Of a stretch of 64,000 nucleotides of DNA, positions 5,105-45,120 are shown piece by piece; positions within the stretch are counted from its first letter, which is position 1, and each line of letters begins with the position of its first letter. This DNA comes from Verrucomicrobiia bacterium. Its GTDB lineage: Bacteria; Verrucomicrobiota; Verrucomicrobiia; Limisphaerales; DASXHY01. The stretch covers positions 16,326-80,325 of the forward strand of contig DATAZE010000058.1 of the NCBI GenBank assembly GCA_036272195.1, written 5' to 3'. The notes under the pieces were generated by a model. That model saw only the letters and a program-made list of their open reading frames with translations, ran no database searches and was not told where the DNA came from. The position numbers were made by a program, and so were the translations under genes.

Positions 5105-6341
5105 TCTGTTGCGGCGTATGAGATGCAAAGAGGCGCATCCGGGGGTCGAAGCTATTCCGCGCGAGCCGCTCTTTAAGAGTTTTTTCGCGGGTGGCTTTGA
5201 ATGTTCCACCCATCGCCTGCGCAACGGCCAACGGCTGGACCTCGTGGCCGCCACGCATCACGAAGAATTCGCGTCGCAGGATTATCAACGTCTCAAAAAA
5301 CAAAGTCTTCGTGTTGCGCGCGAGGGTTTGCGCTGGCATCTCGTGGAACGAACGCGCGGCCACTATGATTTTTCCACCGCTTCGTCCATCGTGCGCGCCG
5401 CGCGCGCCACCGGCACACAAGTCATCTGGGATTTGTGCCATTTCGGTTGGCCAGATCATCTCGATATTTTCACGCCGGACTTTGTCACCGCACTCGCCGA
5501 TTACGGTGCTGCATTCGCCAAGTGGTTGGCCAAAGAAACGGACGAGCCCGGCTTCTTCGTCCCGGTAAATGAGATTTCATTTTTTTCCTGGGCCGCGGCC
5601 GACGAAGGTTGCATTTTCCCGTTCGCTGCCGGCCGGGGTTTTGAATTGAAAACACAGCTGGCACGCGCCGCGATCCGTGCCATGGACGCCATCTGGAGCG
5701 TAATGTCCGCCGCGCAGTTCGCCCACGTGGATCCGATTATTCATGTCGTGGCCGATTTGACACACCCCGAGGAGAAAGCCGAGGCCGAGGCCTACCGTCT
5801 CTCACAATTTCAATCGTGGGACATGATCAGCGGCCGTCTCTGGCCTGAACTGGGCGGCCACGAAAAATATCTGGATGTCATCGGGGCGAATTTTTATCCG
5901 CACAACCAATGGTTTTATAATCTCAAGGGCTTTCGCAGCATTCGTCCCTTCACTCCGATTTTGCGCCGGGACCCGGCGTATCGCCCCTTCCGCGAAATGC
6001 TCGGGGAACTTTACGAGCGTTATCATCGCCCGATGTTCATTGCGGAAACGGGTTCGGAAGATCGCAGGCGCGCCGGTTGGCTTCGCTATGTTTGCGGTGA
6101 AACCCTGGCCGCAATTGAAACCGGCGTCCCCATCCACGGCCTGTGTCTTTACCCCATTTTAAATCATCCCGGTTGGGACGATAGTCGTCATTGCCGCAAT
6201 GGTCTCTGGGATTATCCGGACGCGGACGGACACCGGCAACTTTACGAACCGCTCGCGCGCGAATTGAAAGCGTGGCAAAAAGTTTTTGAACACGGTGAGG
6301 CATCCGGACACGAGGCCGCAATGGAGGCGGCGACGGCATGA
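5088..6341 (+). CDS. Clan GH-A (family-1-like) glycoside hydrolase
   Basis: 417 aa. The FAGGFECSTH start, VNEISF (acid/base-like NE) and FIAETG (nucleophile-like E) fit a (beta/alpha)8 retaining glycosidase. It overlaps the glf end by 17 nt. Confidence 0.55.
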   Translation: MPWNPDLLRRMRCKEAHPGVEAIPREPLFKSFFAGGFECSTHRLRNGQRLDLVAATHHEEFASQDYQRLKKQSLRVAREGLRWHLVERTRGHYDFSTASSIVRAARATGTQVIWDLCHFGWPDHLDIFTPDFVTALADYGAAFAKWLAKETDEPGFFVPVNEISFFSWAAADEGCIFPFAAGRGFELKTQLARAAIRAMDAIWSVMSAAQFAHVDPIIHVVADLTHPEEKAEAEAYRLSQFQSWDMISGRLWPELGGHEKYLDVIGANFYPHNQWFYNLKGFRSIRPFTPILRRDPAYRPFREMLGELYERYHRPMFIAETGSEDRRRAGWLRYVCGETLAAIETGVPIHGLCLYPILNHPGWDDSRHCRNGLWDYPDADGHRQLYEPLARELKAWQKVFEHGEASGHEAAMEAATA

Positions 6342-6356
6342 ACGCAAATAAAAACC

Positions 6357-6425
6357 GAATGACGAATGATGAATGGCTCTCGCAGTACTTGCGGGCATCA
6401 CAAAGCCATTCGTCATTCGTCATTC
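6357..6425. repeat. REP-like hairpin (GAATGACGAATGATGAATGGCT ... AGCCATTCGTCATTCGTCATTC)
   Basis: About 22-nt imperfect inverted arms with an inner CGCAGTACTTGCG palindrome. It lies in the 95-nt gap between the GH-A-like and GH2 genes. Confidence 0.6.
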
Positions 6426-6436
6426 GTCATTAACCC

Positions 6437-9364: not shown

Positions 9365-9431
9365 TACGGTAATAAATTTCGCGCCCCGGTTTTTCTCTTG
9401 TCTCGCACTCCTTTTGTTTCACAATTCAAAC

Positions 9432-11057
9432 GTGAAGCAACGCGCTGGCATTTTCTTGTCCCTTCTCGTCGCGAGCTTTTCGGCCTTTGGCCAGATGACT
9501 TCCAACCAGGTGGCCACTGTCATGGCCCAGGCTCTCACGCGCGCGAATGATTTCCTGGTTTCAGGCGCCACTTCCAATGGCGTCGTGGCCGTGGTCGACC
9601 GCGAAGGTTTTGTGCTCGGTGTTTGGAGCCTGGCACCAAGTCCGTCCGCGTTGGACGTCATTGACGCCATCACCAAGGCTGGCACGGCGGCATTCCTCAG
9701 CAGCGATCAACAGGCGCTGACCTCGCGCACCGCCGGGTTCATCGTCCAACAACATTTTCCGCCCGGAATAAAAAATCGCGAACCCGGCCCGCTGGTCGGT
9801 GTGAATTTTTCGAATCTGTCCTTTTCGGACGTGAATCATTTCAAGGACCCGCGCACCTATAATCCACTCGCATTTGGCGGTGGAGGCACAAATGGCGCGC
9901 CCATTACACCGCTCGGATTAGCGGCACTTTCCGGTCTCGCCGGTTCGCCGGGCGGCGTGCCGTTGTATGATGCCAGCGGCCATCTCCTCGGCAGCGTCGG
10001 CGCGGCAATTTCCGGCCACGCTCCGATTCCTGAACTCTACGACATCCAACCAACCGCCAAACAACGGACGGACATCGACGAGGACGTCGCGCTCGCCGGT
10101 CAACTCGGCTTCGCGCCGAACAAAAAATTCTTTGGCTCGCAGGTGTTCATTGCCGGCATCCGCGTTCCTTACGTGAACAGTAAAACCAAGGTTGAATCGC
10201 CGCTGCCCTTGGGTACCGTTGGCGCACCTGTTCCGCCGTACGACATCACGAATTCGCCGCCGGTCAATTATCCTGCGCTCACTCTCGGCGGGGTGGCCGG
10301 TGAAATGCGCGCGCCCATTATTGACGACCCGGCGGGTGGATTGATTGCCGGCCAGGCTCGCCTCACTGCCGTCGAAGTCACGAACATCCTCACGCTCTCT
10401 GCCCAGCGCGCGGCAATTACTCGCGCCGGCATCCGTCTCCCGCGCGGGCAGGCCGCTCAGGTTTTCATTACGGTGGTCAATAATCCCAATTCACCCGGCG
10501 TTGCGCCAACAGTGCTCGGCACTTTTCGCACTGGCGAAGCAACCATGTTCAGTTGGGACGTGGCCATCCAGAAAGCGCGCACGGCGCTTTACTTTTCCAG
10601 CCCGCTCGCGACCGGCCTTTTGCCCGCTGAATTGCAAAACAAAGCACTCTCGACGCGCGCGATTGGTTTTCTTGCGGAAAGCATGTATCCGCCGGGCATT
10701 CAGAAAAAGCCGCCCGGTCCGTTCCTGGGTTTGCAGGAAAATTTCTCCCTCCTGCCCATTGGTGTGACGAACGTTTTGAATGGAGTTTTTTTTACCGGCG
10801 CCAATCCACCACTCACGGCGCCCGATCCGAATCTGCCGAACGGCATCACGATTTTCCCCGGCGGTTTTCCATTGTATCGCAACGGGGTATTGATCGGAGC
10901 TATTGGCGTCAGTGGCGACGGCGTGGATCAGGACGATCTTATTGCCGCCTCGGGCACGGTGAATTTTCTGGCTCCCACCGCGATTCGTTCCGATCAAATT
11001 ATTTTTCGTCGCACGCGATTGCCCTATGCGAAGTTTCCAAGGAATCCTTCCCTGTAG
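9432..11057 (+). CDS. Exported protein with two GlcG/HbpS-like (DUF336) haem-binding-type domains
   Basis: Signal peptide MKQRAGIFLSLLVASFSAFGQ from a GTG start at 9432 (the ORF track starts at TTG 9414). DUF336-like blocks are present (VVAVVDREGFVLGVW, GAIGVSGDGVDQDDLIA). Confidence 0.6.
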   Translation: MKQRAGIFLSLLVASFSAFGQMTSNQVATVMAQALTRANDFLVSGATSNGVVAVVDREGFVLGVWSLAPSPSALDVIDAITKAGTAAFLSSDQQALTSRTAGFIVQQHFPPGIKNREPGPLVGVNFSNLSFSDVNHFKDPRTYNPLAFGGGGTNGAPITPLGLAALSGLAGSPGGVPLYDASGHLLGSVGAAISGHAPIPELYDIQPTAKQRTDIDEDVALAGQLGFAPNKKFFGSQVFIAGIRVPYVNSKTKVESPLPLGTVGAPVPPYDITNSPPVNYPALTLGGVAGEMRAPIIDDPAGGLIAGQARLTAVEVTNILTLSAQRAAITRAGIRLPRGQAAQVFITVVNNPNSPGVAPTVLGTFRTGEATMFSWDVAIQKARTALYFSSPLATGLLPAELQNKALSTRAIGFLAESMYPPGIQKKPPGPFLGLQENFSLLPIGVTNVLNGVFFTGANPPLTAPDPNLPNGITIFPGGFPLYRNGVLIGAIGVSGDGVDQDDLIAASGTVNFLAPTAIRSDQIIFRRTRLPYAKFPRNPSL

Positions 11058-11270: not shown

Positions 11271-11594
11271 TTAAATGCCGGGATTGAGTGGAGGATAGTC
11301 AATGTCAGTCCATGTGTGAGCAAACTCTCGTAAAAGTTTTTGAGTGTTCTCGTCCTTGGATTCGTGCTTCATAAGCCGTCGGGTCAATGCCGTTTGAAAC
11401 AGCACGCCTGCTGCCGCCATGTTTGTGTACGCACGCTGGAAATCGGCAACCGACCACGAACGACTCCAAATAAAGAGCGGAATTTCCGTTTTGGTCTTTG
11501 GCATTGTCACAAATTCGTCTTTGGAACCATCCTCATAGTGAATTTCAATTCGGGCCACGCGTGGAGTTGGGGATATTTCAGCGTGCATTGTCAT
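11271..11594 (-). CDS. Hypothetical protein (107 aa)
   Basis: The ORF is trimmed to MTMHAEISP, starting 10 nt after the upstream stop. Low-GC composition. No recognisable motifs. Confidence 0.45.
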   Translation of the reverse strand: MTMHAEISPTPRVARIEIHYEDGSKDEFVTMPKTKTEIPLFIWSRSWSVADFQRAYTNMAAAGVLFQTALTRRLMKHESKDENTQKLLREFAHTWTDIDYPPLNPGI

Positions 11595-11604
11595 AATTCG
11601 GTGA

Positions 11605-12402
11605 TCAATTTTTGCTGCGTTTTCGTAGGAGGTAACAGTCTTCAAGCAATCGCCGCCAATTGCGATTGAGATCAACCCCAGATGCGTTCGGTTGATAGAC
11701 CCAACCGCGATAAGACCGGTCATTGAATTTGGATTCGTTTAAACAGTCATGAACCGTCTTTCCGATTATCCATACCTTCGATGAACCGCAGGATTTTAAG
11801 AGAAATCCTCCGTAACCTTTCCACCATTGCTCGTGAAGCTCCTTTTGAACCTCGATATCCACTCGCCCCTCCTTTCGTCGATAGATAGCGTGAACGGAAC
11901 CATCGAGCAGCCAAATTCCCATCCTGTAAAGTTCCCTCAAGGTATCGATTTTCCAACGTAGTCGATCGTCAAAGCTTGCGCCGTCTTCTTGCCGCGGTTG
12001 TGGGCTGCGGAAGGTAATCCGGCCAAACATGTCCCAGTACGTTGGAGTTCCAGCATTGCTCAGCTTTGCCGGTTTGATGGTCAACAGGTTGCTCTCTCCA
12101 TAGGCAAGACAGTAAACCAAGCGAACGAAATGTTCTGGTGGTAAGTTTGCATTGCGACGAAGAAACGGCCGAATTTGAGCTTCGCTAATCTTGAAGCTCG
12201 CATCTTGGTCGGATGTGAAGACGTGAGATTCTGCTACGAGAACCAATTTTGGTTGTTTGGGTTTCCAATACCAACGGTGCCTCTCAACCTTAATTGCAAT
12301 CTCCAGACTTTCCGCACGGTAATCAGCTTCTCGCAAGATCCGACAACCCTCAGCATGAGTTGATCTGAGATATTCCAAAGCATCTGAGGTCAATTCCGAC
12401 AT
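11605..12402 (-). CDS. Hypothetical protein (265 aa)
   Basis: The ORF is trimmed to MSELTSD. Its ATG at 12402 lies 1 nt after the decaheme gene stop (12404-12406). Low-GC composition. The motif order (LVLVAESH ... GIWLLDGS ... VWIIGKTV ... YQPNASG) is only loosely reminiscent of UDG-superfamily folds. Confidence 0.5.
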   Translation of the reverse strand: MSELTSDALEYLRSTHAEGCRILREADYRAESLEIAIKVERHRWYWKPKQPKLVLVAESHVFTSDQDASFKISEAQIRPFLRRNANLPPEHFVRLVYCLAYGESNLLTIKPAKLSNAGTPTYWDMFGRITFRSPQPRQEDGASFDDRLRWKIDTLRELYRMGIWLLDGSVHAIYRRKEGRVDIEVQKELHEQWWKGYGGFLLKSCGSSKVWIIGKTVHDCLNESKFNDRSYRGWVYQPNASGVDLNRNWRRLLEDCYLLRKRSKN

Positions 12403-12403
12403 A

Positions 12404-14089
12404 CTATTTTGCCGACGCCATTTCCTTTTTCGCAGAATGAAACGTATGACACGTCGAACAACTGCTCGCCACGCCGCCTTTCGGGCTGTGGCACTCCACG
12501 CAACTTGCCCGGTTCGGCAATAAGATATCCGCTGTGTCGCGACTGTGCGCGGCATCGTGGCATTGCGCGCACGCGACTTTGAAATGTTTGGTGTGATCGA
12601 ACCGCCCGCGAATCAGCCAGCGATCGGGAATGAAAGGCCGGTTCACTGCGGGCGCGCCATCATCTGATTCGGCGACTTGATGGCAATAGGCGCAGCCCGG
12701 AAAGCGCGCGGCTCCCATCGCATCCGTTCCCGCGGCTTGCGCGACCGGGCCGGTGCGAGCATCACTGAAGAAAATGCGCCGCTCCAATTCCTCGCCCGAG
12801 CCGTAGCGCCCGCGGATTTGCGCCATCTGCGTCTGCACGAAATTTTGCAGCGCTGCAGGCGCGATTCCTTTTTGCTTCGCGCCGAAATCGGCATATTGCT
12901 CCGGCAAGCTGCGCAAGAACGCGCGCACGTGCTCCGCGCTGCCATGCGGCAGGCGCAATTGCGGGTTGTTCACGTCAAATTGCAACGAGTGGCACGTCCG
13001 ACAATTCTCCTCGTAAGAAATTTTCAAATAATAGACGCCCGCCGCATCCGGCTTATGGCAATCCGCGCAATCCAGCTTGTGGCCGTTCAACGGCGGGATG
13101 TTTGCCGAGGTCAGATGGAGCGCGTGATTAAATTTCAGCGTGTCCGGATCCCTCAATTTTTCCGCCAGCACCTGGAATTCAGGATGGTCCGCCGCAAAAC
13201 TGTGAATGAGCCCGGTATAACCTGCTTTTGGCCGCGGTGCTTTGAACAAAATCCGTCCCTGCGCCGCGCGAAAATCGAAATCCTCCGCTGGCAATTTTCT
13301 TCCGATCTCCACTGAAGCCCGCATCACCTCTGCGTTCGCGTGGCAGGAAAGACAATTTGCATCGGTCGGTTTCGGCATGAGCCCCGAGCCTTGATGCTCC
13401 CGATGACACGCCGAGCACGAATGCGCGCGCGCGACATTCGGCTCATGAAAGGAATGCGCCGCGTGGCAATGCTCGCAATTCTGGTCAATCGCGTTCATTC
13501 CCGGCGGCTCGATGGCAGCCAGCGCGCGCACTTGAAAAGGTCCCGGCGTGGCATTGAACGCCGCTTTCATCAAGCCATGCGGCCCAGCGTGCGCGGTGCC
13601 GTGGCACGCAACACACGTTTCTTCGTCGCTTTCGCGTGCTCCGGCGATTTTAGCGAATGCGGCCGTGGAATGTTGCGACGAAAGTTTTCCCGGATTGATA
13701 AATTTCGAGCGAAGCGGCCCGCACAAACCGATCAAAAGAATTCCCGCCGTGAACGCCGTCACGCATATTGCCAGCAATTTCCGCTTCGCACGCAGACTGC
13801 GCACCGGCACACATTTTGTGATTGGCCGGCAGCACGTCCCATCGGGCATCGGCCCATTCCGGCATGGACCGCCATATTCCACCGGGCGCGTGCATTTGTA
13901 GCGCCCCTTGCTCTCGCCAGGATTTGTTTCGAGCGCGGGCTGGCATTCGTAAGTGGCGCGACAATGGCCTTTGCCATCCGGCCCGATGCGGCAGGGCTTG
14001 CCTTCCGCCGCGTGCCCGCAAATCCAATTTTGATTGGGCCGCTCGTACTGATGCTTGTCGAAATCCGGCGAGGGCAATTGTTCCTTCAT
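12404..14089 (-). CDS. Membrane-anchored decahaem c-type cytochrome with an N-terminal Cys-rich cytoplasmic module
   Basis: Ten CXXCH motifs (CVACH, CEHCH, CSACH, CLSCH, CADCH, CRTCH, CAYCH, CAQCH, CVECH, CSTCH). One TM helix (LLAICVTAFTAGILLIGLCG) is preceded by RAKRK. The start MKEQ forms an ATGA overlap with the upstream gene. Confidence 0.85.
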   Translation of the reverse strand: MKEQLPSPDFDKHQYERPNQNWICGHAAEGKPCRIGPDGKGHCRATYECQPALETNPGESKGRYKCTRPVEYGGPCRNGPMPDGTCCRPITKCVPVRSLRAKRKLLAICVTAFTAGILLIGLCGPLRSKFINPGKLSSQHSTAAFAKIAGARESDEETCVACHGTAHAGPHGLMKAAFNATPGPFQVRALAAIEPPGMNAIDQNCEHCHAAHSFHEPNVARAHSCSACHREHQGSGLMPKPTDANCLSCHANAEVMRASVEIGRKLPAEDFDFRAAQGRILFKAPRPKAGYTGLIHSFAADHPEFQVLAEKLRDPDTLKFNHALHLTSANIPPLNGHKLDCADCHKPDAAGVYYLKISYEENCRTCHSLQFDVNNPQLRLPHGSAEHVRAFLRSLPEQYADFGAKQKGIAPAALQNFVQTQMAQIRGRYGSGEELERRIFFSDARTGPVAQAAGTDAMGAARFPGCAYCHQVAESDDGAPAVNRPFIPDRWLIRGRFDHTKHFKVACAQCHDAAHSRDTADILLPNRASCVECHSPKGGVASSCSTCHTFHSAKKEMASAK

Positions 14090-14910
14090 CGCGCGCCTCC
14101 CGAAAAAGCAAACACCAGCACAATGTGCGCGAGCGTCCAGAGCAGCAGGCTGTAGGTCAGCGGAATGTGGACGAAGAGCCAAAGCTTGAGCACCAGTTGC
14201 AGCGAATAATGATAATCCAGTCCGTCCTTTTGCCGGACGAGTGTGGCGATGTCGTCCATCGTCGCGCGCTCGGAGTCGTTGAGATAACGATTGAGCTCGG
14301 TGATCTTATTCAGCACCAGGTTCAACGGCGTGCGGACTTCAAACAAATGCGGCACCACATTTCGCGTCCCGTCGAAAAAGCCCTTCAACTCGCGCGCATA
14401 AAAATCAGCGATGGTCGAAGATTTCATTTCCTCGACGGATTTTAACGCCAGCGCTTCGGCGCGGTCCTGCAATTGGCGGCGAATTCCCGGAATGCGCTCG
14501 AACAAAACCTCGCCACCGCGCGTCGTGAGGCGCTTGGGAATCGTGCGCGAAACGAACAAGCCAAAGAATCCGCTGAGCATCACCAATATATATAGCCACG
14601 CGAGCGTGCCCTCGAACCATCCCGTGGGCATTTTGTAGCTGATGTGCACCAGGAACAGCACCGCGGTCAGCAGGCCCGCATAAATGTGAAATTGCAGCCA
14701 CGCCTCCGACGAGAGCAGCGGCAAAAAGGAAATCTTCTTGCGCGCATTGTAAAAAGTAAGGGCGAGCATGACCCCGAACAAAGCCCAGCCGCTGAGATAA
14801 GCGAACCGCGAGACCACACCCGCATATTTTTCGTGCGCCCAAACCGCCAGCACCGAACTGATCAAAAAAAGAATCAGTCCGGCTGAGCGCTGTTTGGAAA
14901 AGACGTTCAT
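14086..14910 (-). CDS. Polytopic membrane protein, putative dihaem b-type cytochrome
   Basis: Several hydrophobic helices. There are two His pairs each spaced H-x13-H (QFHIYAGLLTAVLFLVH and FVHIPLTYSLLLWTLAH). ATG 14910 forms an ATGA overlap with the upstream stop (an alternative GTG start is 14922). Confidence 0.6.
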   Translation of the reverse strand: MNVFSKQRSAGLILFLISSVLAVWAHEKYAGVVSRFAYLSGWALFGVMLALTFYNARKKISFLPLLSSEAWLQFHIYAGLLTAVLFLVHISYKMPTGWFEGTLAWLYILVMLSGFFGLFVSRTIPKRLTTRGGEVLFERIPGIRRQLQDRAEALALKSVEEMKSSTIADFYARELKGFFDGTRNVVPHLFEVRTPLNLVLNKITELNRYLNDSERATMDDIATLVRQKDGLDYHYSLQLVLKLWLFVHIPLTYSLLLWTLAHIVLVFAFSGGAR

Positions 14911-16634
14911 TTCCTTAGCCACTTGGCAAACGCATCCAGGTCATTCATGTTGATTCGCACCAGCGCGCCGTGCGGACAGGCGCGCTGACAGGAGGGACCG
15001 GTGATTTGCTCCACGCACAAATCGCATTTCGTCGCCTTCAAAATCGGTTTCATTTCCTTGTCCACCAGAAATTCCCCTTCCTCATCGCGAGTTTCGACCA
15101 TGCGAATCGCGTCGTAAGGACAATTATTGAAACACGATTTGCAGCCGATGCACGTCGCGGGATTGATCACGACCTGACCGCCAAACGCGTCCCGATGAAT
15201 CGCGCCCGTCGGGCAGCCAATCATGCAAACCGGATCCACGCAATGCATGCACGCATTCGCCACCATCAGTCGCCCGTTTACCGGGCCATTCCGCAGAAAA
15301 CGCGGGTTGTTATCATGCGCCGTTGCGCACGCGCGCACGCAATCGTCGCAGCGCGTGCAACGATCCATGTCAATCAACATGGTCGCCGTGCCGTTGAACA
15401 GGCGGTTTTCCGTCAGGAACTCCAGCATGTCCGCGCCAATTTTTGCGCTCGCATCCATGGCTGGCGGCGGCGCGGCTTCTTCCTCCGCGATGGGCGTCAT
15501 TGGCGGCGGCAATTCGTCCTTCGCAATCGCTGGCAGCACCACCGATTCCATAACCGCCGTCGGCACGACTATCACGTGCGTGTAGCCGATGACACGCAAG
15601 GTGTATTGCAACGGCACGGCCGCCTGCGGGTTGCGCCAGTTGTGCGCGATTTCCTGCAAGCCGTAAATTTGCCCCGCGCCGAGATAATTGAGCGTGCGAT
15701 GGCCATTGCCAAATTTCTGGCTCACGCGCGCGAAGCCGGCCTTGATCAGAATCACCCCGTTCGGGTAATCGCCTTCCTCCGCGATGATCGGCTCCTGCTT
15801 GCGCGGGCCGCTCGCGACGGTTTGCGCGAGCCGCTTGTAATCGCCGGACCAATCGTAATCGCCAAACGTGCCAAATTCTGTTTTGGCCATGACCTGCTTC
15901 AACGCGTCGGCGGAAAGATTTTTGAAAATCGGAATTTCGCGGAGCGCAATTTCCAGCGCCCGCGCCCGGTAAATCTCGTCAATGTGCCGGCGCAGCGCGT
16001 CATCACACTTCATCAAATCGCGCAAACCCTGCCAGCGAATCTCCAGCAGCTCCGCCTGCTCGCTCTCCGCAAAAATGGAGGCCGTGCGCGGCATGCGGCT
16101 GAGCGCGGCGATCTCGCCGAAAAATTCGCCCGGCTCCAGCGTGGCCGTGCGGTGCTCGTCCAGGACCCGCGGCACGTCTTGAAGAAAAATTTTTACTTCG
16201 TCGCCCGCTCGCCGCTCGGACACGCGGCTGTCCTGCTTTAATTGGGACGGGCCGATGCTCTCCGGCTCTTTGGTCTGGCTCCACAATTGCGCCATCACGC
16301 GAAAGAGACTTTTGCGCTTGGAAACGCGCCGACCGAGGACCGACGGCGGCAATTCCGGCCCGAGCACCACGCGCACATTGCCCGACATCACAAGAAACGC
16401 CGACGTGCCGTAATCGCCTTCACGCACGATGATTTCGCCGCGCTTAAATGTTTTAATGCGCGTATCGTGCTTGAGAACGTCCCGCAGGGACGCGCGCTTG
16501 GGGAAATTATCCGGATTCATCCGCGAGAACGGCGCCACCGCCAGCAACCGCTCAACGCTGGCGTCCGTCATTTCCGGATCGAACGCGGCATCCCAGCGTT
16601 GCGGACGATCGAAAGTGAAGGGTGCGGAGGGCAT
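14907..16634 (-). CDS. Cyclic-nucleotide-binding (x2) protein fused to a four-cluster 4Fe-4S ferredoxin domain
   Basis: Two cNMP-binding-like regions (FKRGEIIVREGDYG...FFGEIAALSRMPRTASI, then a second IPIFKNL...). Four Cys clusters are present (CTRCDDCVRAC, CMHCVDPVCMIGCP, CIGCKSCFNNCP, CDLCVEQITGPSCQRACP). No signal or Tat motif. Confidence 0.8.
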   Translation of the reverse strand: MPSAPFTFDRPQRWDAAFDPEMTDASVERLLAVAPFSRMNPDNFPKRASLRDVLKHDTRIKTFKRGEIIVREGDYGTSAFLVMSGNVRVVLGPELPPSVLGRRVSKRKSLFRVMAQLWSQTKEPESIGPSQLKQDSRVSERRAGDEVKIFLQDVPRVLDEHRTATLEPGEFFGEIAALSRMPRTASIFAESEQAELLEIRWQGLRDLMKCDDALRRHIDEIYRARALEIALREIPIFKNLSADALKQVMAKTEFGTFGDYDWSGDYKRLAQTVASGPRKQEPIIAEEGDYPNGVILIKAGFARVSQKFGNGHRTLNYLGAGQIYGLQEIAHNWRNPQAAVPLQYTLRVIGYTHVIVVPTAVMESVVLPAIAKDELPPPMTPIAEEEAAPPPAMDASAKIGADMLEFLTENRLFNGTATMLIDMDRCTRCDDCVRACATAHDNNPRFLRNGPVNGRLMVANACMHCVDPVCMIGCPTGAIHRDAFGGQVVINPATCIGCKSCFNNCPYDAIRMVETRDEEGEFLVDKEMKPILKATKCDLCVEQITGPSCQRACPHGALVRINMNDLDAFAKWLRK

Positions 16635-16639
16635 TTGAA

Positions 16640-17224
16640 TCAGTCTTTAATCTTAAACTCCACATATCCGTCATCAGGAACGTCGCGAATCTGGCGCGCA
16701 AGGTCAGCATGAAAAAGAATTACCTCGTCTGCTCGAACCGGTTTCAACGATGCAGTCGCGCCTGATTGTTGAAAGACAAAAGGCGGATAAGCGAGAAGCA
16801 GTTCTCCAGGCTGCAATGGGTGAGTTAATCCGACGTTTAAAAAATGTTCGACGTCCGCACTCAACCCGCAAAAAAATTCCTCAACAGTCTCAGTTAGCAA
16901 TTCAACTTCTCCGGTTTCAGCAAAAAGCCTTAGAACCACATTATCTCGAATTAGGAACTGGTCGCCAAACTGGTCCTGCGCAAAAGGAATATCCGCAGGT
17001 CCAATGCCTTCGTAGAGCGTGCAAAATGCATGCTGCCCTCGCCACGCAGCACGAAGCGAATGCCATTCCGGCGACAAGCTTGCGCCGCGCACATGCACCG
17101 CTCCTTCGTGGAGAATAAAACCGTTTGTATCAGCAAGAATGCGGCTCAGGGCAGCGGGGAGTTCGCGCAGAATTTCGACATCATCTATGCTATCGCCTCG
17201 CCATGTAATACTGGAGAGATTCAT
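16640..17224 (-). CDS. SMI1/KNR4 (SUKH-1)-like protein
   Basis: 194 aa. The ELPAALSRILADTNGFILHEGAVHVRG pattern is typical of SMI1/KNR4 domains. GC is visibly lower than in the neighbours (hand count 25/60 for 16861-16920). Confidence 0.5.
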   Translation of the reverse strand: MNLSSITWRGDSIDDVEILRELPAALSRILADTNGFILHEGAVHVRGASLSPEWHSLRAAWRGQHAFCTLYEGIGPADIPFAQDQFGDQFLIRDNVVLRLFAETGEVELLTETVEEFFCGLSADVEHFLNVGLTHPLQPGELLLAYPPFVFQQSGATASLKPVRADEVILFHADLARQIRDVPDDGYVEFKIKD

Positions 17225-17230
17225 AGGCCT

Positions 17231-18601
17231 TTATGCATCCAGCACCAAATTCGACTTCGGTTTGCAAATACACGTCAGGCACGAACCTGTCTCGGCGCTC
17301 GCGCCTTGCGACGCCAGATATTCCACGTCGCCGGATTTGATGGCCACCAGGCAGGTGCCGCAATTTCCCGCGCGGCAACCGGCATCAATCCTGACTCCAC
17401 GCGCTTCGGCAAAGTCGAGCAGCGAACCCATCGCCGGGTCCCAATGATGCGTTTTGTTCGATTTGCCGAACGTCACCGTGATCTTCGAGAGCATCATCGT
17501 GTCGCTCGCCGATGGTGGCGCGGCTTTTTTCACCGACGCCGGGCCGAACGCTTCGAAATGCACATTTGCATCCGGCACGCCCCATTCCGTGAGTCCGTCC
17601 GTGATGCTCTTCATGAAAGCGCCCGGGCCGCACAGGAAATAATCGTAATTGTTCGAGGGCAGCAATTGTTTGAACAACTCCACCGTCACGCGGCCTTCGT
17701 GCTGGTAATCTTTGCCCTTGGCATCCTCTTTGGCCGGTTTGCTGTAGCAGACGTGCAGGCGCACGTTTTCATTTCCGGCGGCGATTTTTTCGAGATGCTC
17801 CTTGAGGATATGTTCCTTGCGATTGCGCGCGCCGAAGAAAAACCACACCTCGCGCTTTTGCCCGCTCTCCACAATCGCGTTCAGCATGCTCACCATCGGC
17901 GTGATGCCCACGCCGCCTGAAATCAGCACCACCGGCTTTTCCTCGGACATCTCCAGAAAGAAATGGCCGCCCGGCGCTTTCACATCGAGGATGTCGCCCA
18001 CTTTGATGGTGTCGCAGAAATACGACGAGGCAATCCCGCATTTGGCGCCCTCACAATCCGGCGGCGGCAGCGCCTTTTTGATCGTGACGCGGTAACAATC
18101 GGGCCGATGCGAATCCGAGAGCGAATAACAGCGGATGACGGGCTTGCCCTGGCCGGGCAGGTTCAGTTGAAAGGTAATATATTGGCCGGGTTTAAACTGC
18201 GGGAGCGGCCGCCCATCGTGCGGAGCGAGATAAAACGAATGCACGTCCTCGCATTCGCATACTTTTTTAAGGACCTGAAATTTTCGGTAACCGTTCCAGA
18301 CGAGGTTGATTTGTTCGACCTCTTTGGTCCGGGCTTTGGCCGTCTGGATTTCGATTTTTAACCGCTGGCGCGCCAGTGATTGTTGCTCGCGCTCGAATGA
18401 CAGTCGCCGCAAAGTCCCGTAACAAAGCGAGGCGGCGTAAAGGGTCAAAAATCCGAGCAAGAGATAACCGAAGAGGAGACTGATATTTCCCCCAAATGCA
18501 GATTGCATCTGTTGTATAAGGGATTGCATTTCTGGTGTGCAGAATATAACAAGGCGCTGTGCCCGGCAAACATTTAACTTGGTTCTCGCGGCATTCAACA
18601 A
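17231..18601 (-). CDS. Membrane-anchored FNR-like oxidoreductase (FAD + NAD(P)H domains) with a C-terminal plant-type 2Fe-2S ferredoxin
   Basis: It has an N-terminal TM helix, the RCYSLSD (RxYS) FAD motif, GGVGITPM NAD motif and CRAGNCGTC...CLTC 2Fe-2S motif. The true start may be MQSLIQ at 18529. Confidence 0.8.
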   Translation of the reverse strand: MLNAARTKLNVCRAQRLVIFCTPEMQSLIQQMQSAFGGNISLLFGYLLLGFLTLYAASLCYGTLRRLSFEREQQSLARQRLKIEIQTAKARTKEVEQINLVWNGYRKFQVLKKVCECEDVHSFYLAPHDGRPLPQFKPGQYITFQLNLPGQGKPVIRCYSLSDSHRPDCYRVTIKKALPPPDCEGAKCGIASSYFCDTIKVGDILDVKAPGGHFFLEMSEEKPVVLISGGVGITPMVSMLNAIVESGQKREVWFFFGARNRKEHILKEHLEKIAAGNENVRLHVCYSKPAKEDAKGKDYQHEGRVTVELFKQLLPSNNYDYFLCGPGAFMKSITDGLTEWGVPDANVHFEAFGPASVKKAAPPSASDTMMLSKITVTFGKSNKTHHWDPAMGSLLDFAEARGVRIDAGCRAGNCGTCLVAIKSGDVEYLASQGASAETGSCLTCICKPKSNLVLDA

Positions 18602-18695
18602 AAGAAAAGTGGCGGAGATCCGTCGCCATCCAAAACCTTGCGGATATCTTTGTGCGGCCGACCGCGCGCCAGCGGTTGCTCTGCTGGTCTTGCAG

Positions 18696-18882
18696 CCCGT
18701 CAGGGCGAAAGAAAATAGCCCACCGCTTCAGTGGTGGGGCGTTGCGCGCGAACGTTCAAAGTCCCGGAGGGACGGCAGAACCTCATGGAAGGAATTTCTG
18801 CCGTCCCTGCGGGACTTGGCAAAGCATGGACGTTCATCCCAGCGATGAATCACTGGGCTATTTTCTTTCGTCCTGGCGGACT
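18696..18882. repeat. REPIN/MITE-like nested palindromic element (transposase-less copy of the RAYT element at 22281-22911)
   Basis: Outer inverted arms run (CCCGTCAGGGCGAAAGAAAATAGCCCA ... TGGGCTATTTTCTTTCGTCCTGGCGGA). Inner arms are GTCCCGGAGGGACGGCAGAA (18761-18780) and TTCTGCCGTCCCTGCGGGAC (18796-18815), separated by 15 nt. Confidence 0.75.
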
Positions 18883-20031
18883 TGGCTTTTGGGCCTGCGC
18901 TCGCCCATTGCGGGTTTCGTTCTGATAACTTTATTCGTCATTTCCCCGCCGCGGGTTTTTGCTGATGAAACAACCTCTCCAGTTGTCGCGCCTAAATTTC
19001 TCGGTTCACAAACCTGCAGCTCGAGCAGTTGCCACGGCGGCGCAGGTGAAAAAAGCAATCAATACACGATCTGGTCCACGCACGATTTTCACCACGCGAG
19101 GCCTTATGCGACGCTCGAAACCGCACGATCCGAGCGGTTGGCTGAAGTCTTGAAACTCGGCAATCCCACACAAAGCGCGCGCTGCACTGTTTGTCATGCG
19201 CCTTTTGCCACTGTTCCCGCGGATCGCCTCGGCCACGATGCGCAAATCAGCGAAGGCATCTCGTGCGAAACCTGCCACGGCCCCGCCGAAAACTGGCTCC
19301 GTTCCCACACCCGGCACGATTACACGCACGCCGACCGCGGTGCCGCCGGAATGCGCGACCTGAAAAATCTCTACGTCCGCGCAAACACATGCGTCGCCTG
19401 CCATCAGAACATCGATCCCGAAATTCGCGCCGCCGGCCATCCGGAATTGATTTTCGAATTGGACGGGCAATCGGTGACGATGCCGAGGCACTGGCGCGAG
19501 GAGCGAACGCCGGCTGATCGGTGGTTTGTTGGGCAGGCAGTCGCGCTTCGCGAAATGAGCGCGCAATTACAAAGTTTTCCCAGCCTGGAGTTATCGAATC
19601 GCTGGGCCGGTCTTTTATGGGTGCTTCAACGGGCGGGCAAACCTGAAATTCTCCAAACGAATGACGAAGACATTGCGCGGGTGCAAAAACGTTTCGACGG
19701 TTTTGCGCGGGAAATCGCAATGATCCCAAAAGAAGAACCTTCCGCAAACGGCCTGAAACAAACGGTCCAACAGCTCTCCGCGAGCAGCACAGCTTTTGAA
19801 GATAAAATGATTCCCGTCCCACTCCAGGCACGCCGCGCCGAACGCCTCACACTCGCATTAGACCGTCTGGTTATAATGCTTCCCGGCGTAACCACCAATT
19901 CCGCCGTGAACCAATCCCTGAACAAGCTTTTTGCCGACGCCCAATCGCTGCCGGATTTTGACCCGAACCAGTTCGCGAAGGACCTGAACACATTCCATTC
20001 CAGTGTCGCCGGCTTTCTGGAAACAAAATAA
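18826..20031 (+). CDS. Exported tetrahaem c-type cytochrome (cytochrome c554-like N-terminus)
   Basis: Three CXXCH motifs (CTVCH, CETCH, CVACH) plus one CX4CH (CSSSSCH). The signal peptide ends in VFA/DE. ATG 18826 lies inside the REPIN; an alternative TTG start is about 18886. Confidence 0.75.
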   Translation: MDVHPSDESLGYFLSSWRTWLLGLRSPIAGFVLITLFVISPPRVFADETTSPVVAPKFLGSQTCSSSSCHGGAGEKSNQYTIWSTHDFHHARPYATLETARSERLAEVLKLGNPTQSARCTVCHAPFATVPADRLGHDAQISEGISCETCHGPAENWLRSHTRHDYTHADRGAAGMRDLKNLYVRANTCVACHQNIDPEIRAAGHPELIFELDGQSVTMPRHWREERTPADRWFVGQAVALREMSAQLQSFPSLELSNRWAGLLWVLQRAGKPEILQTNDEDIARVQKRFDGFAREIAMIPKEEPSANGLKQTVQQLSASSTAFEDKMIPVPLQARRAERLTLALDRLVIMLPGVTTNSAVNQSLNKLFADAQSLPDFDPNQFAKDLNTFHSSVAGFLETK

Positions 20032-22222
20032 GCGCTGCTTGGCGCTGCCCGTTTTTTGCCTGAGCGCCACGCTCGCGGCGGCGCAAACGAACTCCGCGCC
20101 CAACACCAACGCCCTCGCGCCGCACCAATTCATCGACACCAATTCACCGCCGCAATCGCCGGTAAAATTCAACCCGGACTTCGGCGTCCCGCCCTCGCGC
20201 TACCATCCGAGTCCAGCGCCCAATCCATCGATCAGCTCGCGCTGGGTGACAAATCTTCCGCCCGAACCAGTCGCACCGCCGGTTTTCAATCCCGACCCCG
20301 GCGCGATGTTGAAATCACAAACAACCAACACGCCGTTCTTTACCAACACATTTTCACCACCACCCGCTTATTCCGGCGAAGCGATACCCCCGGGGTTCAC
20401 GTTGCCGCGCCCGAACGTGCGCAGCGAACAACTCGAACTCACGAACCAGCCCGCGGGCAATTACGGCGCGGGCCCGCTGCCGCCCGGCCTCGAATTGCCC
20501 CGCACCAACACGCGCGGCAATCTTTACATCAAGGAAAAATGGGATACCCCGAAATACGCGCCGCTTTATGATTATACGCTCCCGCCATTCGCCGAACCCG
20601 AAACGAACCGGTGGCGCATCGGTTTTGTGCCGTGGCGCCGTTACACCAGCGGCGACATCGAGCAGCCCTATGAATCACCCAAGCCGATGCTCTGGCGGCC
20701 CTACGCGCAAAGCCTGCTCAAAGGCGACGCGCCCATTCTCGGACAGGATGTTTTTCTGGACCTGACCGCCGGCTCGGAAACCACTTTTGAATTGCGCCGC
20801 GTGCCGACGCCGAGTGGCGTCAGTTCATCGCACCCGAATAACGCGGAATTTTTTGGCAAAAGCGAGCAGATGTTCGTGCAAAATAATTTTTCATTCACCG
20901 TCGACCTCTTCCAAGGCGAAACCGTCTTCCAGCCGGTGCATTGGGCCTTGCGGCTGGAGCCGGTCTTCAACGTCAATTACACTGACACACGCGAGAACAA
21001 CGTCATCAGCCCGAATCCCCAGCGCGGCACGGATCGTCTCGATAGTTTCGTCGCGCTTCAGCAGGCGTTCATTGAGCTTCATCTCGGCGATCTTTCGGAG
21101 AATTATGATTTCATGGCCACGCGAATTGGCAACCAGCCCTTCAACAGCGATTTTCGCGGGTTCATTTTCAACGACGTCAATCTCGCTGCGCGTCTGTTCG
21201 GCAATTACGACAACAATCGCTGGCAATACAACGTCATCGTCTTCGACATGGACGAGAAGGACACGAATTCCGAGCTGAACAAATTCGCGCGGCGCGGCCA
21301 GGACGTTTTCATCGCGAATTTATTCCGCCAGGATTTCCTGTGGCACGGCTATACGGCGCAATTGAGTTTTCACGCGAATTTCGACCACGGCGGCACGCAC
21401 TACGACGAAAACGGGAACCTCACCCGCCCAGCGCCCCTCGGCTCGGTGGTGCCGCACGATGTGAACGCATTTTATTTTGGCTGGGCGGGGGACGGGCACA
21501 TTGGCCGGTTGAATCTCAGTCACGCATTTTATGAGGTGGTTGGGCACGACAGTTTCAACGGCCTCGCCGGCCGCCCGGTGGACATCAACGCTCAAATGGC
21601 CGCGCTGGAACTCTCTTATGATCGCGATTGGATCCGCTACAAGGCGTCCGTGTTCTATGCCTCCGGCGATCACAAAGCCACCGACGGCACGGCGAACGGG
21701 TTTGATTCCATTGTCGACAACCCGAATTTCACCGGCGGCCCGTTCAGTTGGTATGTGCACCAGGGATTCAACCTCGCCGGCACCGCAGTCGGCTTGAAAC
21801 AGCGCGACAGCCTCATCCCTGATTTGCGCACGAGCAAAACGGAAGGACAGGCGAACTTCGTTAACCCGGGCGTATTGCTCCTCGGCCTGGGAACGGAAAT
21901 GGATTTGACCCCAAGGCTGCGGAGTTTCATCAACGCGAATTACGTTCGCTTCATGGAAACCGATGCCATCAAAACCGCGCTCCTCACCGACAAAGTGGAC
22001 AATGAACTCGGCTACGATTTAAGCCTCGGATTTCAATATCGTCCGCTGTTGACGGACAACGTCATCATTTCGACCGGCTTTGGCACATTGATTCCCGGCA
22101 CCGGCTACCGCGACATTTACAAAACCAGCAGCGATCCTGTTTCCGGCTACGGCTCGCACGGCCGCGGCCGGGTGGATGATTTTCTTTACAGCGTGGTGTT
22201 GTCCGTCACACTTACTTATTAA
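20003..22222 (+). CDS. Putative outer-membrane beta-barrel (porin-like) protein with a Pro-rich N-terminal region
   Basis: Signal peptide LALPVFCLSATLAAAQ (an alternative TTG start is 20039). It is rich in alternating aromatic/polar strands and ends in the terminal ...VVLSVTLTY aromatic residue typical of OMPs. Confidence 0.55.
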   Translation: MSPAFWKQNKRCLALPVFCLSATLAAAQTNSAPNTNALAPHQFIDTNSPPQSPVKFNPDFGVPPSRYHPSPAPNPSISSRWVTNLPPEPVAPPVFNPDPGAMLKSQTTNTPFFTNTFSPPPAYSGEAIPPGFTLPRPNVRSEQLELTNQPAGNYGAGPLPPGLELPRTNTRGNLYIKEKWDTPKYAPLYDYTLPPFAEPETNRWRIGFVPWRRYTSGDIEQPYESPKPMLWRPYAQSLLKGDAPILGQDVFLDLTAGSETTFELRRVPTPSGVSSSHPNNAEFFGKSEQMFVQNNFSFTVDLFQGETVFQPVHWALRLEPVFNVNYTDTRENNVISPNPQRGTDRLDSFVALQQAFIELHLGDLSENYDFMATRIGNQPFNSDFRGFIFNDVNLAARLFGNYDNNRWQYNVIVFDMDEKDTNSELNKFARRGQDVFIANLFRQDFLWHGYTAQLSFHANFDHGGTHYDENGNLTRPAPLGSVVPHDVNAFYFGWAGDGHIGRLNLSHAFYEVVGHDSFNGLAGRPVDINAQMAALELSYDRDWIRYKASVFYASGDHKATDGTANGFDSIVDNPNFTGGPFSWYVHQGFNLAGTAVGLKQRDSLIPDLRTSKTEGQANFVNPGVLLLGLGTEMDLTPRLRSFINANYVRFMETDAIKTALLTDKVDNELGYDLSLGFQYRPLLTDNVIISTGFGTLIPGTGYRDIYKTSSDPVSGYGSHGRGRVDDFLYSVVLSVTLTY

Positions 22223-22280: not shown

Positions 22281-22911
22281 AGTCCGATAGGACGTCAGAT
22301 AATAGCCCACCGCTTTAGCGGTGGGTTTAGCCCAAACTTCCCAAGTCCCGCAGGGACGGCAGAACCTTAAAACATGCACGCGTTCACGAGCAGCCTCTAT
22401 CATTGTGTGTGGAGCACGAAAGACAGGCGGCCCGTCCTGACACCCGAAATTCAAGCTCGGCTTTGGCCATATCTAGGTGGAACTGCCCGGGCAAACAAAA
22501 CCTGGGCATTGGCCGTTGGTGGTGTCGCTGACCACGTCCATATCTTGCTTTCGCTGCCTTCAACACTCACAATTTCAAAAGCCATCCAATTGTTGAAAGG
22601 CAATTCGTCAAAGTGGTTGCATGAGGAGTTCCGCGATCTTCGGTCCTTTAATTGGCAGGAAGGATACGGAGCTTTCACGATTGGAATGTCGAGTGTAGCC
22701 GATACCAAAAACTATATTGCCACACAGAACGAACATCATCAGAAGAAAACGTTCCAGGAAAAGTTTCGTTCCTTTCTGGATAAGCACGGTTTGTCGTATG
22801 ATGCAGCGACCTTGTGGGACTAATTTCTGCCGTCCCTGCGGGACTCGACGACGCTCCGGCGTTCATCCCAGCGATGAATCGCTGGGCTATTTTCTTTCGT
22901 CCTTACGGACT
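22281..22911 (+). mobile_element. IS200/IS605-like RAYT element with nested terminal hairpins
   Basis: The outer inverted arms are AGTCCGATAGGACGTCAGATAATAGCCCA and TGGGCTATTTTCTTTCGTCCTTACGGACT. The inner arms are GTCCCGCAGGGACGGCAGAA (22345-22364) and TTCTGCCGTCCCTGCGGGAC (22825-22844), hugging the transposase ORF. Confidence 0.8.
22374..22823 (+). CDS. REP-associated tyrosine transposase (IS200-like Y1/HUH transposase)
   Basis: 149 aa. It has the YHCVWSTKDRRP start, the HUH motif (HVHIL) and the WQEGYGAF tyrosine motif. Confidence 0.85.
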   Translation: MHAFTSSLYHCVWSTKDRRPVLTPEIQARLWPYLGGTARANKTWALAVGGVADHVHILLSLPSTLTISKAIQLLKGNSSKWLHEEFRDLRSFNWQEGYGAFTIGMSSVADTKNYIATQNEHHQKKTFQEKFRSFLDKHGLSYDAATLWD

Positions 22912-36708: not shown

Positions 36709-36727
36709 AAAGGGGGCTAACTAAGAT

Positions 36728-36761
36728 AGCGTTGCCGGAGGTAACACCGGCAACGCTTTTT
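36728..36761 (+). terminator. Rho-independent terminator-like hairpin
   Basis: AGCGTTGCCGG-AGGTAACA-CCGGCAACGCT followed by TTTTT, 20 nt after the stop at 36708. Confidence 0.6.
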
Positions 36762-36803
36762 ACCATCGGGCGGTCCGCCGGTTTCAAAATTCAGCTGTCG
36801 TGC

Positions 36804-42472: not shown

Positions 42473-42482
42473 CCCAAGCACC

Positions 42483-44117: not shown

Positions 44118-44119
44118 AT

Positions 44120-45109: not shown

Positions 45110-45120
45110 GTCTACGGAGC

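Follow-up and report, generated by a model that had tools for sequence, protein, structure and literature searches.

The 64,000-nucleotide (nt) stretch analysed here, hereafter the window, comes from contig DATAZE010000058.1 of a Verrucomicrobiia bacterium, a soil or freshwater Verrucomicrobium. Between positions 12404 and 18601 of the window, on the minus strand, lies an operon of five tightly packed open reading frames (ORFs), which encode an FNR-like reductase, a 194-amino-acid (aa) protein, a 575-aa iron–sulfur (FeS) protein, a membrane protein and a multihaem cytochrome. An earlier note on the sequence had pointed to this gene set, to its junctions and to H-x13-H histidine pairs in the membrane protein, and had interpreted the genes as a module that exports electrons across the inner membrane. 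The observation is confirmed and the interpretation is supported by the analysis described below.

The TGA of the 575-aa gene and the ATG of the membrane gene share an ATGA at positions 14907–14910, and the TGA of the membrane gene shares a second ATGA with the ATG of the cytochrome gene at positions 14086–14089. Six nt separate the stop of the FNR gene (17231) from the next ATG (17224), and 5 nt separate the 194-aa gene from the 575-aa gene (16640 to 16634). The coordinates from which translational coupling had been proposed were therefore reproduced at all four junctions. The genes named in the earlier note are all present, but its title left out the fourth gene of the interval, the 194-aa ORF at 16640–17224. 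Two of the starts had to be moved. The FNR gene is real, but instead of the TTG at 18601 the ATG at 18529 is its probable start, giving a 432-aa product that matches the extent of its orthologues. Likewise the membrane gene stands, but in place of the 278-aa form, which starts at a GTG (14922), a 274-aa form starting at the ATG at 14910 is probable, as in most database gene calls. Residues of the membrane protein are numbered below on the 274-aa form unless the 278-aa ORF is named, in which case 4 is added. A pattern scan found no terminator-like sites at the gene junctions. Overall it returned 19 terminator-like sites against 11.6 ± 4.2 expected from shuffled sequences and 3 promoter-like sites against 3.3 expected, with overall site counts within about two standard deviations of the shuffles, and it speaks neither for nor against an intact operon.

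The membrane protein and its histidine pairs

The membrane gene (14086–14910, minus strand) encodes a predicted dihaem b-type cytochrome of 274 aa, an assignment drawn from an AlphaFold2 model, invariant histidines and sub-threshold matches to haem-b families. The 278-aa ORF has histidines at positions 30, 79, 93, 192, 238, 252 and 266, which make up three H-x13-H pairs. In shuffled sequences, two or more such pairs occurred in 0.7% of cases and three in 0.02%. Judged from the alignments, conservation is far stronger evidence for the pairs than this shuffle test. A HMMER search of 1.84 billion cluster representatives placed the protein in a family of 1569 clusters (50% identity) at E ≤ 0.001, with 312 at E ≤ 1e-30. 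Among 134 representatives with 35–54% identity, H75 (codon 14686–14688), H89 (14644–14646), H248 (14167–14169) and H262 (14125–14127), all encoded on the minus strand, are invariant or nearly so, and in 132 of 132 representatives each helix has a spacing of exactly 13 residues. Two pairs, the number given in the earlier note, are thus present and invariant in homologues, namely H79/H93 and H252/H266 of the 278-aa ORF. H238 (H234 in the 274-aa numbering) was considered as a fifth haem ligand and rejected, being replaced by Gln in half of the relatives, and by this alignment only the two conserved pairs appear to matter as pairs.

An AlphaFold2 model built from an 82-sequence alignment reached a predicted local distance difference test score (pLDDT) of 94.9 and a predicted template-modelling score (pTM) of 0.87. 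It contains helices at residues 2–29, 36–57, 68–89 and 98–130, several short ones within 137–207, and a long helix at 212–269. We read this as five transmembrane (TM) helices, with TM4 and TM5 separated by a helical insert of some 115 aa on the cytoplasmic side (approximately residues 126–240). The predicted topology places H75-x13-H89 in TM3 and H248-x13-H262 in TM5, with H75 and H248 lying 7–10 residues from the cytoplasmic ends of these helices and H89 and H262 at their periplasmic ends. The N-terminus is assigned to the inside because of a conserved R57/K58 loop, the charge-rich insert (19 Lys/Arg) and a relative in which the FeS protein is fused to TM1. In this relative, the 843-aa natural fusion P0205, the cyclic-nucleotide-binding (cNMP) FeS protein is joined directly to TM1 of the membrane protein. 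An inside N-terminus makes TM3 and TM5 parallel, both leading from the cytoplasm outward, and the histidine pairs are therefore matched in depth, in line with the placement proposed earlier. The modelled histidine geometry corresponds to that of cytochrome b and NOX, in which two haems form a wire through the membrane, and we infer that the protein binds two b-haems. The insert is conserved in the alignment and, in the model, appears suited to docking of a partner.

The relation of this protein to known families is distant. Several results weigh against the electron-export reading here. In Pfam no model reached its cut-off with the window protein, and only DUF4405 (PF14358) came into view, at 18.4 bits against 26.7. 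Of ten distant members, eight had no DUF4405 match at E ≤ 0.01, and most match no family. When the family profile was compared by hhalign with single E. coli sequences, neither MsrQ (probability 0.4%) nor YodB (0.2%) gave a significant alignment. A Foldseek search of the model against the PDB likewise returned nothing significant, the best match being TenA at E = 0.22 and cytochrome b561 (4o7g) scoring E = 2.4.

In addition, the family profile retrieved only noise from PDB sequences. Sub-threshold matches recur across 82 family members and cover TM2–TM3: DUF4405 in 47 of the 82 (at E ≤ 1, best E 2.3e-6), Ni_hydr_CYTB (PF01292) in 25 (best E 1.2e-4) and Ferric_reduct (PF01794) in 12 (best E 2.6e-4). 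Ferric_reduct did not match the window protein itself, and its best match in the family, to P0214, scored 19.2 bits against a cut-off of 28. All three families presumably belong to the two-haem cytochrome clan. Pfam scans of the window proteins and the 82 members found no match to the quinol-binding families of NrfD/PsrC, NapC/NirT or HybB type. The five predicted TM helices also differ from the NrfD/PsrC type, which has eight or more and no haem. DUF4405 proteins have been purified with haem b bound (PMC11334425).

The absence of a significant match in Pfam, PDB sequences and Foldseek would also suit a different view, in which the four invariant histidines bind another cofactor, such as a metal, or are structural, and the protein anchors the decahaem cytochrome or assists in its assembly. 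We give this very little credence. H-x13-H on two parallel TM helices in every one of the 132 representatives is the signature spacing of bis-His dihaem bundles, the recurrent weak matches point to haem-b families only, and the gene is flanked by genes for electron carriers on both sides of the membrane. The term 'NOX-like', used in the earlier note, keeps its meaning for the bis-His arrangement with x13 spacing in TM3 and TM5, but not as a statement of kinship, as there is no significant match to Ferric_reduct or MsrQ and the helices number five rather than six. We therefore use it as an analogy of mechanism only, and not for membership of the ferric-reductase/NOX family. The sequence and model together suggest that the membrane protein is the founder of a distinct family, dihaem-cytochrome-b-like in function and outside the ferric-reductase-domain (FRD)/NOX, DUF4405 and cytochrome b561 families.

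Proposed redox partners on either side of the membrane

Directly upstream of the membrane gene, the 575-aa gene (14907–16634, minus strand) encodes a cNMP-binding polyferredoxin, identified from Pfam, its relatives in the PDB and synteny. Its two cNMP_binding domains precede one of HycB/HydN type, in which there are four [4Fe-4S] motifs. The two sensor domains were scanned separately against Pfam cNMP_binding (PF00027). Domain 1 (approximately residues 47–225, positions 15960–16496) is split by an insertion of about 55 aa and scored 60 bits against a cut-off of 27.5. Its phosphate-binding cassette, FGEIAALSRMPRTA, at positions 16080–16121, is canonical; among 58 orthologues F172, G173, E174 and R183 are kept in at least 95% and T184 in at least 80%, and phmmer matched the domain to the cyclic-nucleotide-binding domains of the protein kinase A regulatory subunit (PKA-R) and of protein kinase G (PKG). 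Domain 2 (approximately residues 283–365, positions 15540–15788) is more divergent, at 29.4 bits against the same cut-off. In comparisons with its orthologues and with a Crp-family structure, it has YGLQEIAHNWR, conserved in the family as G-x2-E-I-A-H-N-W-R, in place of FGE...R[ST]A. Cassette residues are thus retained in domain 1, as FGE...R[T], but not in domain 2, whose cassette is degenerate and lacks R[ST]A. The protein therefore likely has one true cyclic-nucleotide pocket, in domain 1, judging from these residues. Domain 1 would probably tune or gate electron flow, and domain 2 probably has another ligand or serves as a relay. Folds of this type often bind ligands other than cyclic nucleotides, which adds to the points against the reading as a whole.

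The ferredoxin domain (residues 417–566, positions 14937–15386) contains 16 Cys in four Cx2Cx2-8Cx3C motifs, all conserved in the 58 orthologues. The combination of two N-terminal cNMP domains with a four-cluster ferredoxin, as described earlier, stands with both sensor domains above the Pfam cut-off. Fer4_11 (PF13247) matched at 40.6 bits against 26.2 and Fer4_7 at 49.4 against 27, and related models were also above their cut-offs. The best solved relatives, with E-values from 1e-15 to 3e-11, are HycB3 (E = 1e-15) and HycB4, which are cytoplasmic subunits of hydrogen-dependent CO2 reductase, and HycB/subunit 2 of formate hydrogenlyase. The protein has no twin-arginine translocation (Tat) motif and no N-terminal hydrophobic h-region; its N-terminus reads MPSAPFTFDRPQRWDAAF..., without RR, and 416 residues of cNMP domains and linker precede the FeS domain. 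The absence of a Tat signal agrees with the earlier note; the resemblance to NrfC/DmsB does not hold, the FeS domain being closest to the cytoplasmic HycB/HydN type. A periplasmic placement of the NrfC/DmsB kind was rejected on both grounds. Taken together, the missing Tat motif and the HycB-type relatives indicate that the 575-aa protein is a cytoplasmic HycB/HydN-type polyferredoxin. Its public annotation is only 'cyclic nucleotide-binding domain-containing protein'. In a distant relative (locus L074, positions 5359–8001) the corresponding protein has 880 aa rather than 575, and the sensor part thus varies in size between lineages.

The first gene of the operon (17231–18529, minus strand) encodes an FNR-like NAD(P)H oxidoreductase of 432 aa, assigned from Pfam and NCBIfam matches, conserved motifs and synteny. 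An N-terminal hydrophobic anchor (residues 13–31) and a coiled region are followed by FAD_binding_6 (34 bits), NAD_binding_1 (81.6 bits) and a C-terminal plant-type [2Fe-2S] domain, Fer2 (42.2 bits), each above its cut-off. The RxYS, GGxGxxP and CGP motifs and the Fer2 cysteines (Cx4Cx2C) are kept in 52 orthologues, and the reductase proposed earlier is therefore well identified by domains and signature motifs alike. The protein fell under every NCBIfam equivalog cut-off, the best matches being the reductase half of flavohaemoprotein, then PaaE, GbcB, BenC and NqrF, and so it belongs to no named enzyme.

On the other side of the membrane gene, the gene at 12404–14089 (minus strand) encodes a c-type cytochrome of 561 aa, identified as decahaem from 10 CXXCH motifs, a single TM helix and synteny; the count of ten agrees with the earlier description of this neighbour. 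An N-terminal domain with eight Cys (13790–14089) is followed by the TM helix (13721–13777) and by a periplasmic domain that carries the ten CXXCH motifs. In 62 orthologues the ten motifs and the eight N-terminal Cys are invariant. The latter form a tandem C-x9-C-x9-C-x5-C within residues 1–100, where several Gly and Pro are also invariant. The domain should be cytoplasmic, because the single TM helix and a stretch of positive charges come after it. Pfam returned no match for it; an AlphaFold2 model from 18 homologues was poor (pLDDT 66, pTM 0.36), and a Foldseek search with this model came back empty. From its conserved cysteines it may be an Fe-S or Zn site and may contribute to assembly of the complex with the FeS protein; for a c-type cytochrome, a conserved domain that looks metal-binding and faces the cytoplasm is unusual. 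Compared with known multihaem cytochromes, the protein scored 19.9 bits against 192.2 with the DmsE-family model, had no match to Cytochrom_NNT, and matched NCBIfam TmcA weakly (26.3 bits against 114). In loci L076 and L077, an independent ORF of about 100 aa stands ahead of the cytochrome; it may be a Cys-rich domain that has become detached.

Conservation of the gene neighbourhood

Scanning one genome per species gave 72 related loci, nearly all from Verrucomicrobiia (subdivision 3, Limisphaerales, Pedosphaera), which were compared over 10-kb flanks; denominators below count the loci whose flanks were long enough. In 57 of 61 loci the membrane gene is immediately preceded by the cNMP/FeS gene, in 53 of 56 it has the FNR gene upstream in the same orientation, and in 66 of 68 it is immediately followed by the decahaem gene. 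The FeS protein is thus nearly always present and the FNR protein usually. Two loci from relatives with only 34–35% identity, L074 and L075, carry the full set on one strand, in the order large cytochrome, 500–525-aa protein, FNR, c554-like protein, cNMP/FeS protein, membrane protein and cytochrome. The functional link between the module genes is reinforced by this conserved synteny and by the natural fusion of FeS and membrane proteins. One distant cluster of the membrane-protein family includes a protein labelled Acidobacteriota. Besides the label of the 575-aa protein quoted above, 'hypothetical protein' is used in public annotation.

Further points on the opposing side come from the exceptions. 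In the fusion locus (L073), P0205 is followed by a 656-aa multihaem cytochrome, and the FNR gene is not nearby. In L076 and L077 the membrane protein and cytochrome genes are adjacent with no cNMP/FeS gene nearby, and in L004, L015 and L071 the cNMP/FeS gene is missing upstream. Because some relatives are without the FNR or the FeS gene, the invariant core consists of the membrane protein and the cytochrome, a core that would also fit a quinol-oxidizing b-type cytochrome, and NAD(P)H may not be the sole donor, or the donor in all carriers.

This leads to the main rival, in which the membrane protein is a menaquinol dehydrogenase, like CbcL, CymA or NarI, that passes electrons from menaquinol-7 (MK-7H2) to the decahaem cytochrome, with the FNR and FeS proteins as regulatory or auxiliary inputs. 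The invariant pair of membrane protein and multihaem cytochrome and the loci in which the FeS gene is missing upstream or not nearby are consistent with this view, MK-7 occurs in related Limisphaera, and quinone sites are common on dihaem b-type cytochromes. It accounts poorly, however, for a FeS gene that is translationally coupled to the membrane gene and directly upstream of it in 57 of 61 loci, for the natural fusion of the two products, and for a conserved cytoplasmic insert of about 115 aa that suits docking. A four-cluster wire, moreover, needs a redox partner at both ends, and the NrfD/PsrC, NapC/NirT and HybB-type families are unmatched. We consider a menaquinol dehydrogenase unlikely, if still the alternative to be taken most seriously.

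Beyond the operon, on the plus strand, lie genes that could carry electrons outward. A cytochrome c554-like protein, whose gene (18559–20031) is divergently transcribed, matched Cytochrome_C554 at E = 3.7e-9 and has three CXXCH motifs and one CX3-4CH. It is followed by a putative outer-membrane beta-barrel (porin) of 739 aa (20003–22222), with a weak Alginate_exp match only, and by a large multihaem cytochrome of 1389 aa (22717–26886) with 10 CXXCH motifs and LVIVD beta-propeller repeats, a putative outer or extracellular electron outlet. The c554-like gene stands beside the FNR gene in 50 of the 72 loci; a porin-like gene was found within the 10-kb flanks in 26 and the 1389-aa cytochrome in 22. 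On the plus strand at 9414–11057, a gene encodes a secreted-looking protein of 547 aa with an HbpS-like (haem-degrading/GlcG) domain (E = 4e-13). A gene of this kind occurs in 33 of the 72 loci, usually beside the decahaem or porin gene, and its product may be an accessory factor.

The outward genes bear on a further alternative, namely a reductase for periplasmic maintenance or assimilation, in the manner of MsrPQ or FoxB. It would hold a cytochrome or iron pool of the periplasm or outer membrane in the reduced state, for instance for iron uptake or repair after oxidative stress, and not support EET on the scale of respiration; or else the cNMP/FeS protein is mainly a redox sensor. Fre/MsrQ, the closest mechanistic precedent, does serve repair rather than respiration, and the HbpS-like secreted protein found in those 33 loci belongs to a family linked to haem and oxidative stress. 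A repair function would leave unexplained why a porin and a 1389-aa surface-type multihaem cytochrome are co-located with the module. The roughly 24 c-haems in total, including those of the c554-like protein, suggest a long-range conduit, and related isolates respire ferrihydrite. This alternative therefore appears highly improbable.

The remaining genes of the interval and its surroundings are less regular. The 194-aa gene (16640–17224, minus strand) is probably foreign and lies outside the conserved module. Its product is weakly SUKH/SMI1_KNR4-like, of the immunity-protein kind, with a match to SMI1_KNR4 at E = 0.047, below cut-off. None of the 72 related loci contains a match to it, and the GC content at its third codon positions (GC3) is 0.44, compared with 0.66–0.74 in its neighbours. 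It was accordingly rejected as a conserved subunit; it is probably a foreign insertion that looks recent and has left the tight gene spacing undisturbed. Immediately downstream of the decahaem gene, at 11271–12555 on the minus strand, are two ORFs of about 265 aa (ATG at 12402; maximally 316 aa from 12555) and 150 aa, with a GC content of 0.48. They have no Pfam match and no counterpart in the related loci, and are probably another foreign insertion.

Mobile DNA is also found among the outward genes. The ORFs of the c554-like protein (490 aa) and of the 1389-aa cytochrome share an N-terminal peptide, …FCRPCGT…HPSDESLGYFLSS…, encoded at 18559–18900 and 22717–22920 (plus strand). Because this peptide is a mere translation of a repeat element, the starts of both genes must lie downstream; hydrophobic signal segments at residues 110–128 of the c554-like ORF and 67–85 of the 1389-aa ORF place the real starts near these positions. 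Two copies of the Acido-Lenti-1 motif (RF01687), at 22281–22325 on the minus and 22867–22911 on the plus strand, scored 42–46 bits against a gathering threshold of 37. They flank a gene for an IS200-like Y1 transposase (22374–22823, plus strand; Pfam E = 2e-28), which sits between the porin and 1389-aa cytochrome genes. Copies that are 80–83% similar and lack a transposase are found at 18694–18738 and 18838–18882, between the FNR and c554-like genes, and form a palindrome of about 190 nt there. This arrangement suggests that the Acido-Lenti-1 'small RNA' motif is the terminal hairpin of a mobile element of the REP/RAYT type (repetitive extragenic palindrome and its associated tyrosine transposase).

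Farther along the window, positions 32113–48584 contain polysaccharide-utilization genes. They encode a 1531-aa PATR-repeat protein, a 1460-aa GH32 protein with immunoglobulin (Ig) domains, a sugar transporter of the major facilitator superfamily (MFS), a DUF2961 protein, a BNR/3-keto-disaccharide hydrolase protein and a sulfatase. This gene content fits a saccharolytic, polysaccharide-degrading Verrucomicrobium.

Proposed electron path and its place among known systems

Collectively, we regard it as probable that the module is a split, NOX-like, quinone-independent inner-membrane electron exporter that feeds a porin–cytochrome pathway. The membrane-anchored FNR-like flavoprotein would oxidize NAD(P)H and release single electrons through its own [2Fe-2S] cluster. 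These would pass to the cytoplasmic wire of four [4Fe-4S] clusters on the protein with two cNMP-type sensor domains, which is proposed to dock on the 274-aa five-helix membrane protein, as the fusion found in some organisms suggests. Two b-haems between TM3 and TM5, the inner one held by H75/H248 and the outer by H89/H262, would then carry the electrons across the membrane to the single-pass decahaem c-type cytochrome, the product of the overlapping next gene. From there, electrons could reach the c554-like cytochrome, the porin and the LVIVD multihaem cytochrome, to end on acceptors outside the cell, for example Fe(III) or humic substances.

Outward flow is favoured because the cytoplasmic end of the path is an NAD(P)-linked flavoprotein, and inward transfer to NAD(P)+ would be uphill and against the membrane potential. 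This argument is a thermodynamic one only, which we count among the points against the exporter. In the reverse arrangement, the decahaem cytochrome would take electrons from Fe(II), reduced humics or a partner cell, and the b-haems and FeS wire would deliver them to the cytoplasm, as in Hmc/Tmc. The layout of periplasmic multihaem cytochrome c, membrane haem b and cytoplasmic FeS protein does match Hmc/Tmc, and the decahaem cytochrome has its weak TmcA match (26.3 bits against 114). With an FNR flavoprotein as the cytoplasmic partner, however, reduction of NAD(P)+ (about −320 mV) by Fe(II) or humics would be uphill, electrons would move against an inside-negative membrane potential, and the cluster encodes no cytoplasmic terminal reductase. 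We regard inward flow as highly improbable. If electrons are exported and protons are left inside, the module would act as a sink that regenerates NAD(P)+ and dissipates rather than builds proton-motive force, as NOX does. A sugar-fermenting cell could thus use it to dispose of electrons; Limisphaera in culture both ferment sugars and reduce ferrihydrite.

Among characterized systems, the module most resembles in mechanism Fre/MsrQ, SpNOX and NOX5, in which an FNR-family NAD(P)H flavoprotein and a membrane protein with bis-His TM3 and TM5, which would hold two stacked b-haems, serve an acceptor on the periplasmic side. Fre/MsrQ is itself a split system of FNR and dihaem b, with the dehydrogenase and the membrane part on separate polypeptides (PMC5676040). 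In NOX proper the FAD/NADPH domain is fused C-terminally, whereas here the FNR protein is encoded by a separate gene, two to three genes upstream. Compared with both, the module has five predicted TM helices, not six, and its last helix follows a cytoplasmic insert of about 115 aa; it places a [2Fe-2S] and a four-cluster ferredoxin between flavin and haems, adds cNMP sensor domains, and would use a decahaem c-type cytochrome as acceptor rather than O2 or MsrP. The class of DUF4405, PepSY-TM and FezC proteins, which includes the best, sub-threshold Pfam match, shares four central and most-conserved histidines in TM helices. It has been proposed to transfer electrons across the membrane to extracytosolic acceptors (Light laboratory, mSystems 2024; PMC11334425). 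The protein studied here differs in having five helices, not six, and in being encoded with a polyferredoxin and multihaem cytochromes rather than with ApbE flavinylation or ferrosomes.

HmcABCDEF and TmcABCD of sulfate reducers share the three layers of periplasmic multihaem cytochrome c, membrane haem b and cytoplasmic FeS protein, but the module is without a NarI-like cytochrome b or an HdrD/CCG protein, has an NAD(P)H flavoprotein, and probably runs in the opposite direction. CymA, ImcH, CbcL and CbcBA occupy the same position in their pathways, between the inner membrane and periplasmic multihaem cytochromes, beside a porin–cytochrome cluster. These are quinol dehydrogenases, whereas no NapC/NirT, HybB or NrfD domain was detected in the module, whose input would come from soluble-type FeS and flavin proteins. 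At the level of single subunits, HycB3 (E = 1e-15) of the HycB/HydN/HycB3–B4 group aligns with the FeS domain over its whole length, but here the domain is fused behind two cNMP domains. The FNR protein shares its parts (TM anchor, 2Fe-2S, FAD and NADH domains) with NqrF, but its 2Fe-2S domain is C-terminal and its score is 116.8 bits against a cut-off of 295. The closest precedents would therefore be Fre/MsrQ in mechanism, Hmc/Tmc in architecture and DUF4405 in sequence. The module is unlike all three in its subunit families, its intercalated cNMP-polyferredoxin, its five-helix fold and its decahaem acceptor.

In the literature on this gene combination, we found no description of the module. 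He et al. described the Verrucomicrobia porin–cytochrome cluster in 2017 and left its inner-membrane step unassigned (PMC5615132). If correct, the reading proposed here would fill that step of the 2017 model. A more specific proposal, which we advance tentatively and with slightly more doubt than belief, is that the module is an NAD(P)H-driven, quinone-independent and cyclic-nucleotide-gated entry to extracellular electron transfer (EET), with a new five-helix dihaem b family and with a decahaem cytochrome whose invariant 8-Cys (Fe-S or Zn) domain extends into the cytoplasm and helps to assemble or regulate the complex. To our knowledge, all characterized inner-membrane entry points of EET in Gram-negative bacteria (CymA, ImcH, CbcL, CbcBA) draw on the quinol pool. 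A path from NAD(P)H through FeS clusters and two b-haems to multihaem cytochromes would be a different solution, closer to eukaryotic NADPH oxidases than to respiratory chains, and a cNMP-gated polyferredoxin would be unusual in placing an electron wire under the direct control of a second messenger.

The membrane protein defines a large family outside Pfam, with the 1569 clusters noted above. If the function proposed for the module holds, fermentative Verrucomicrobia and their relatives in other phyla would dump reducing equivalents on humics or Fe(III) under second-messenger control. Verrucomicrobia of subdivision 3 are abundant in soils, bogs and lakes, and in humic-rich anoxic habitats carbon flow would be shifted from fermentation products and methane to CO2.

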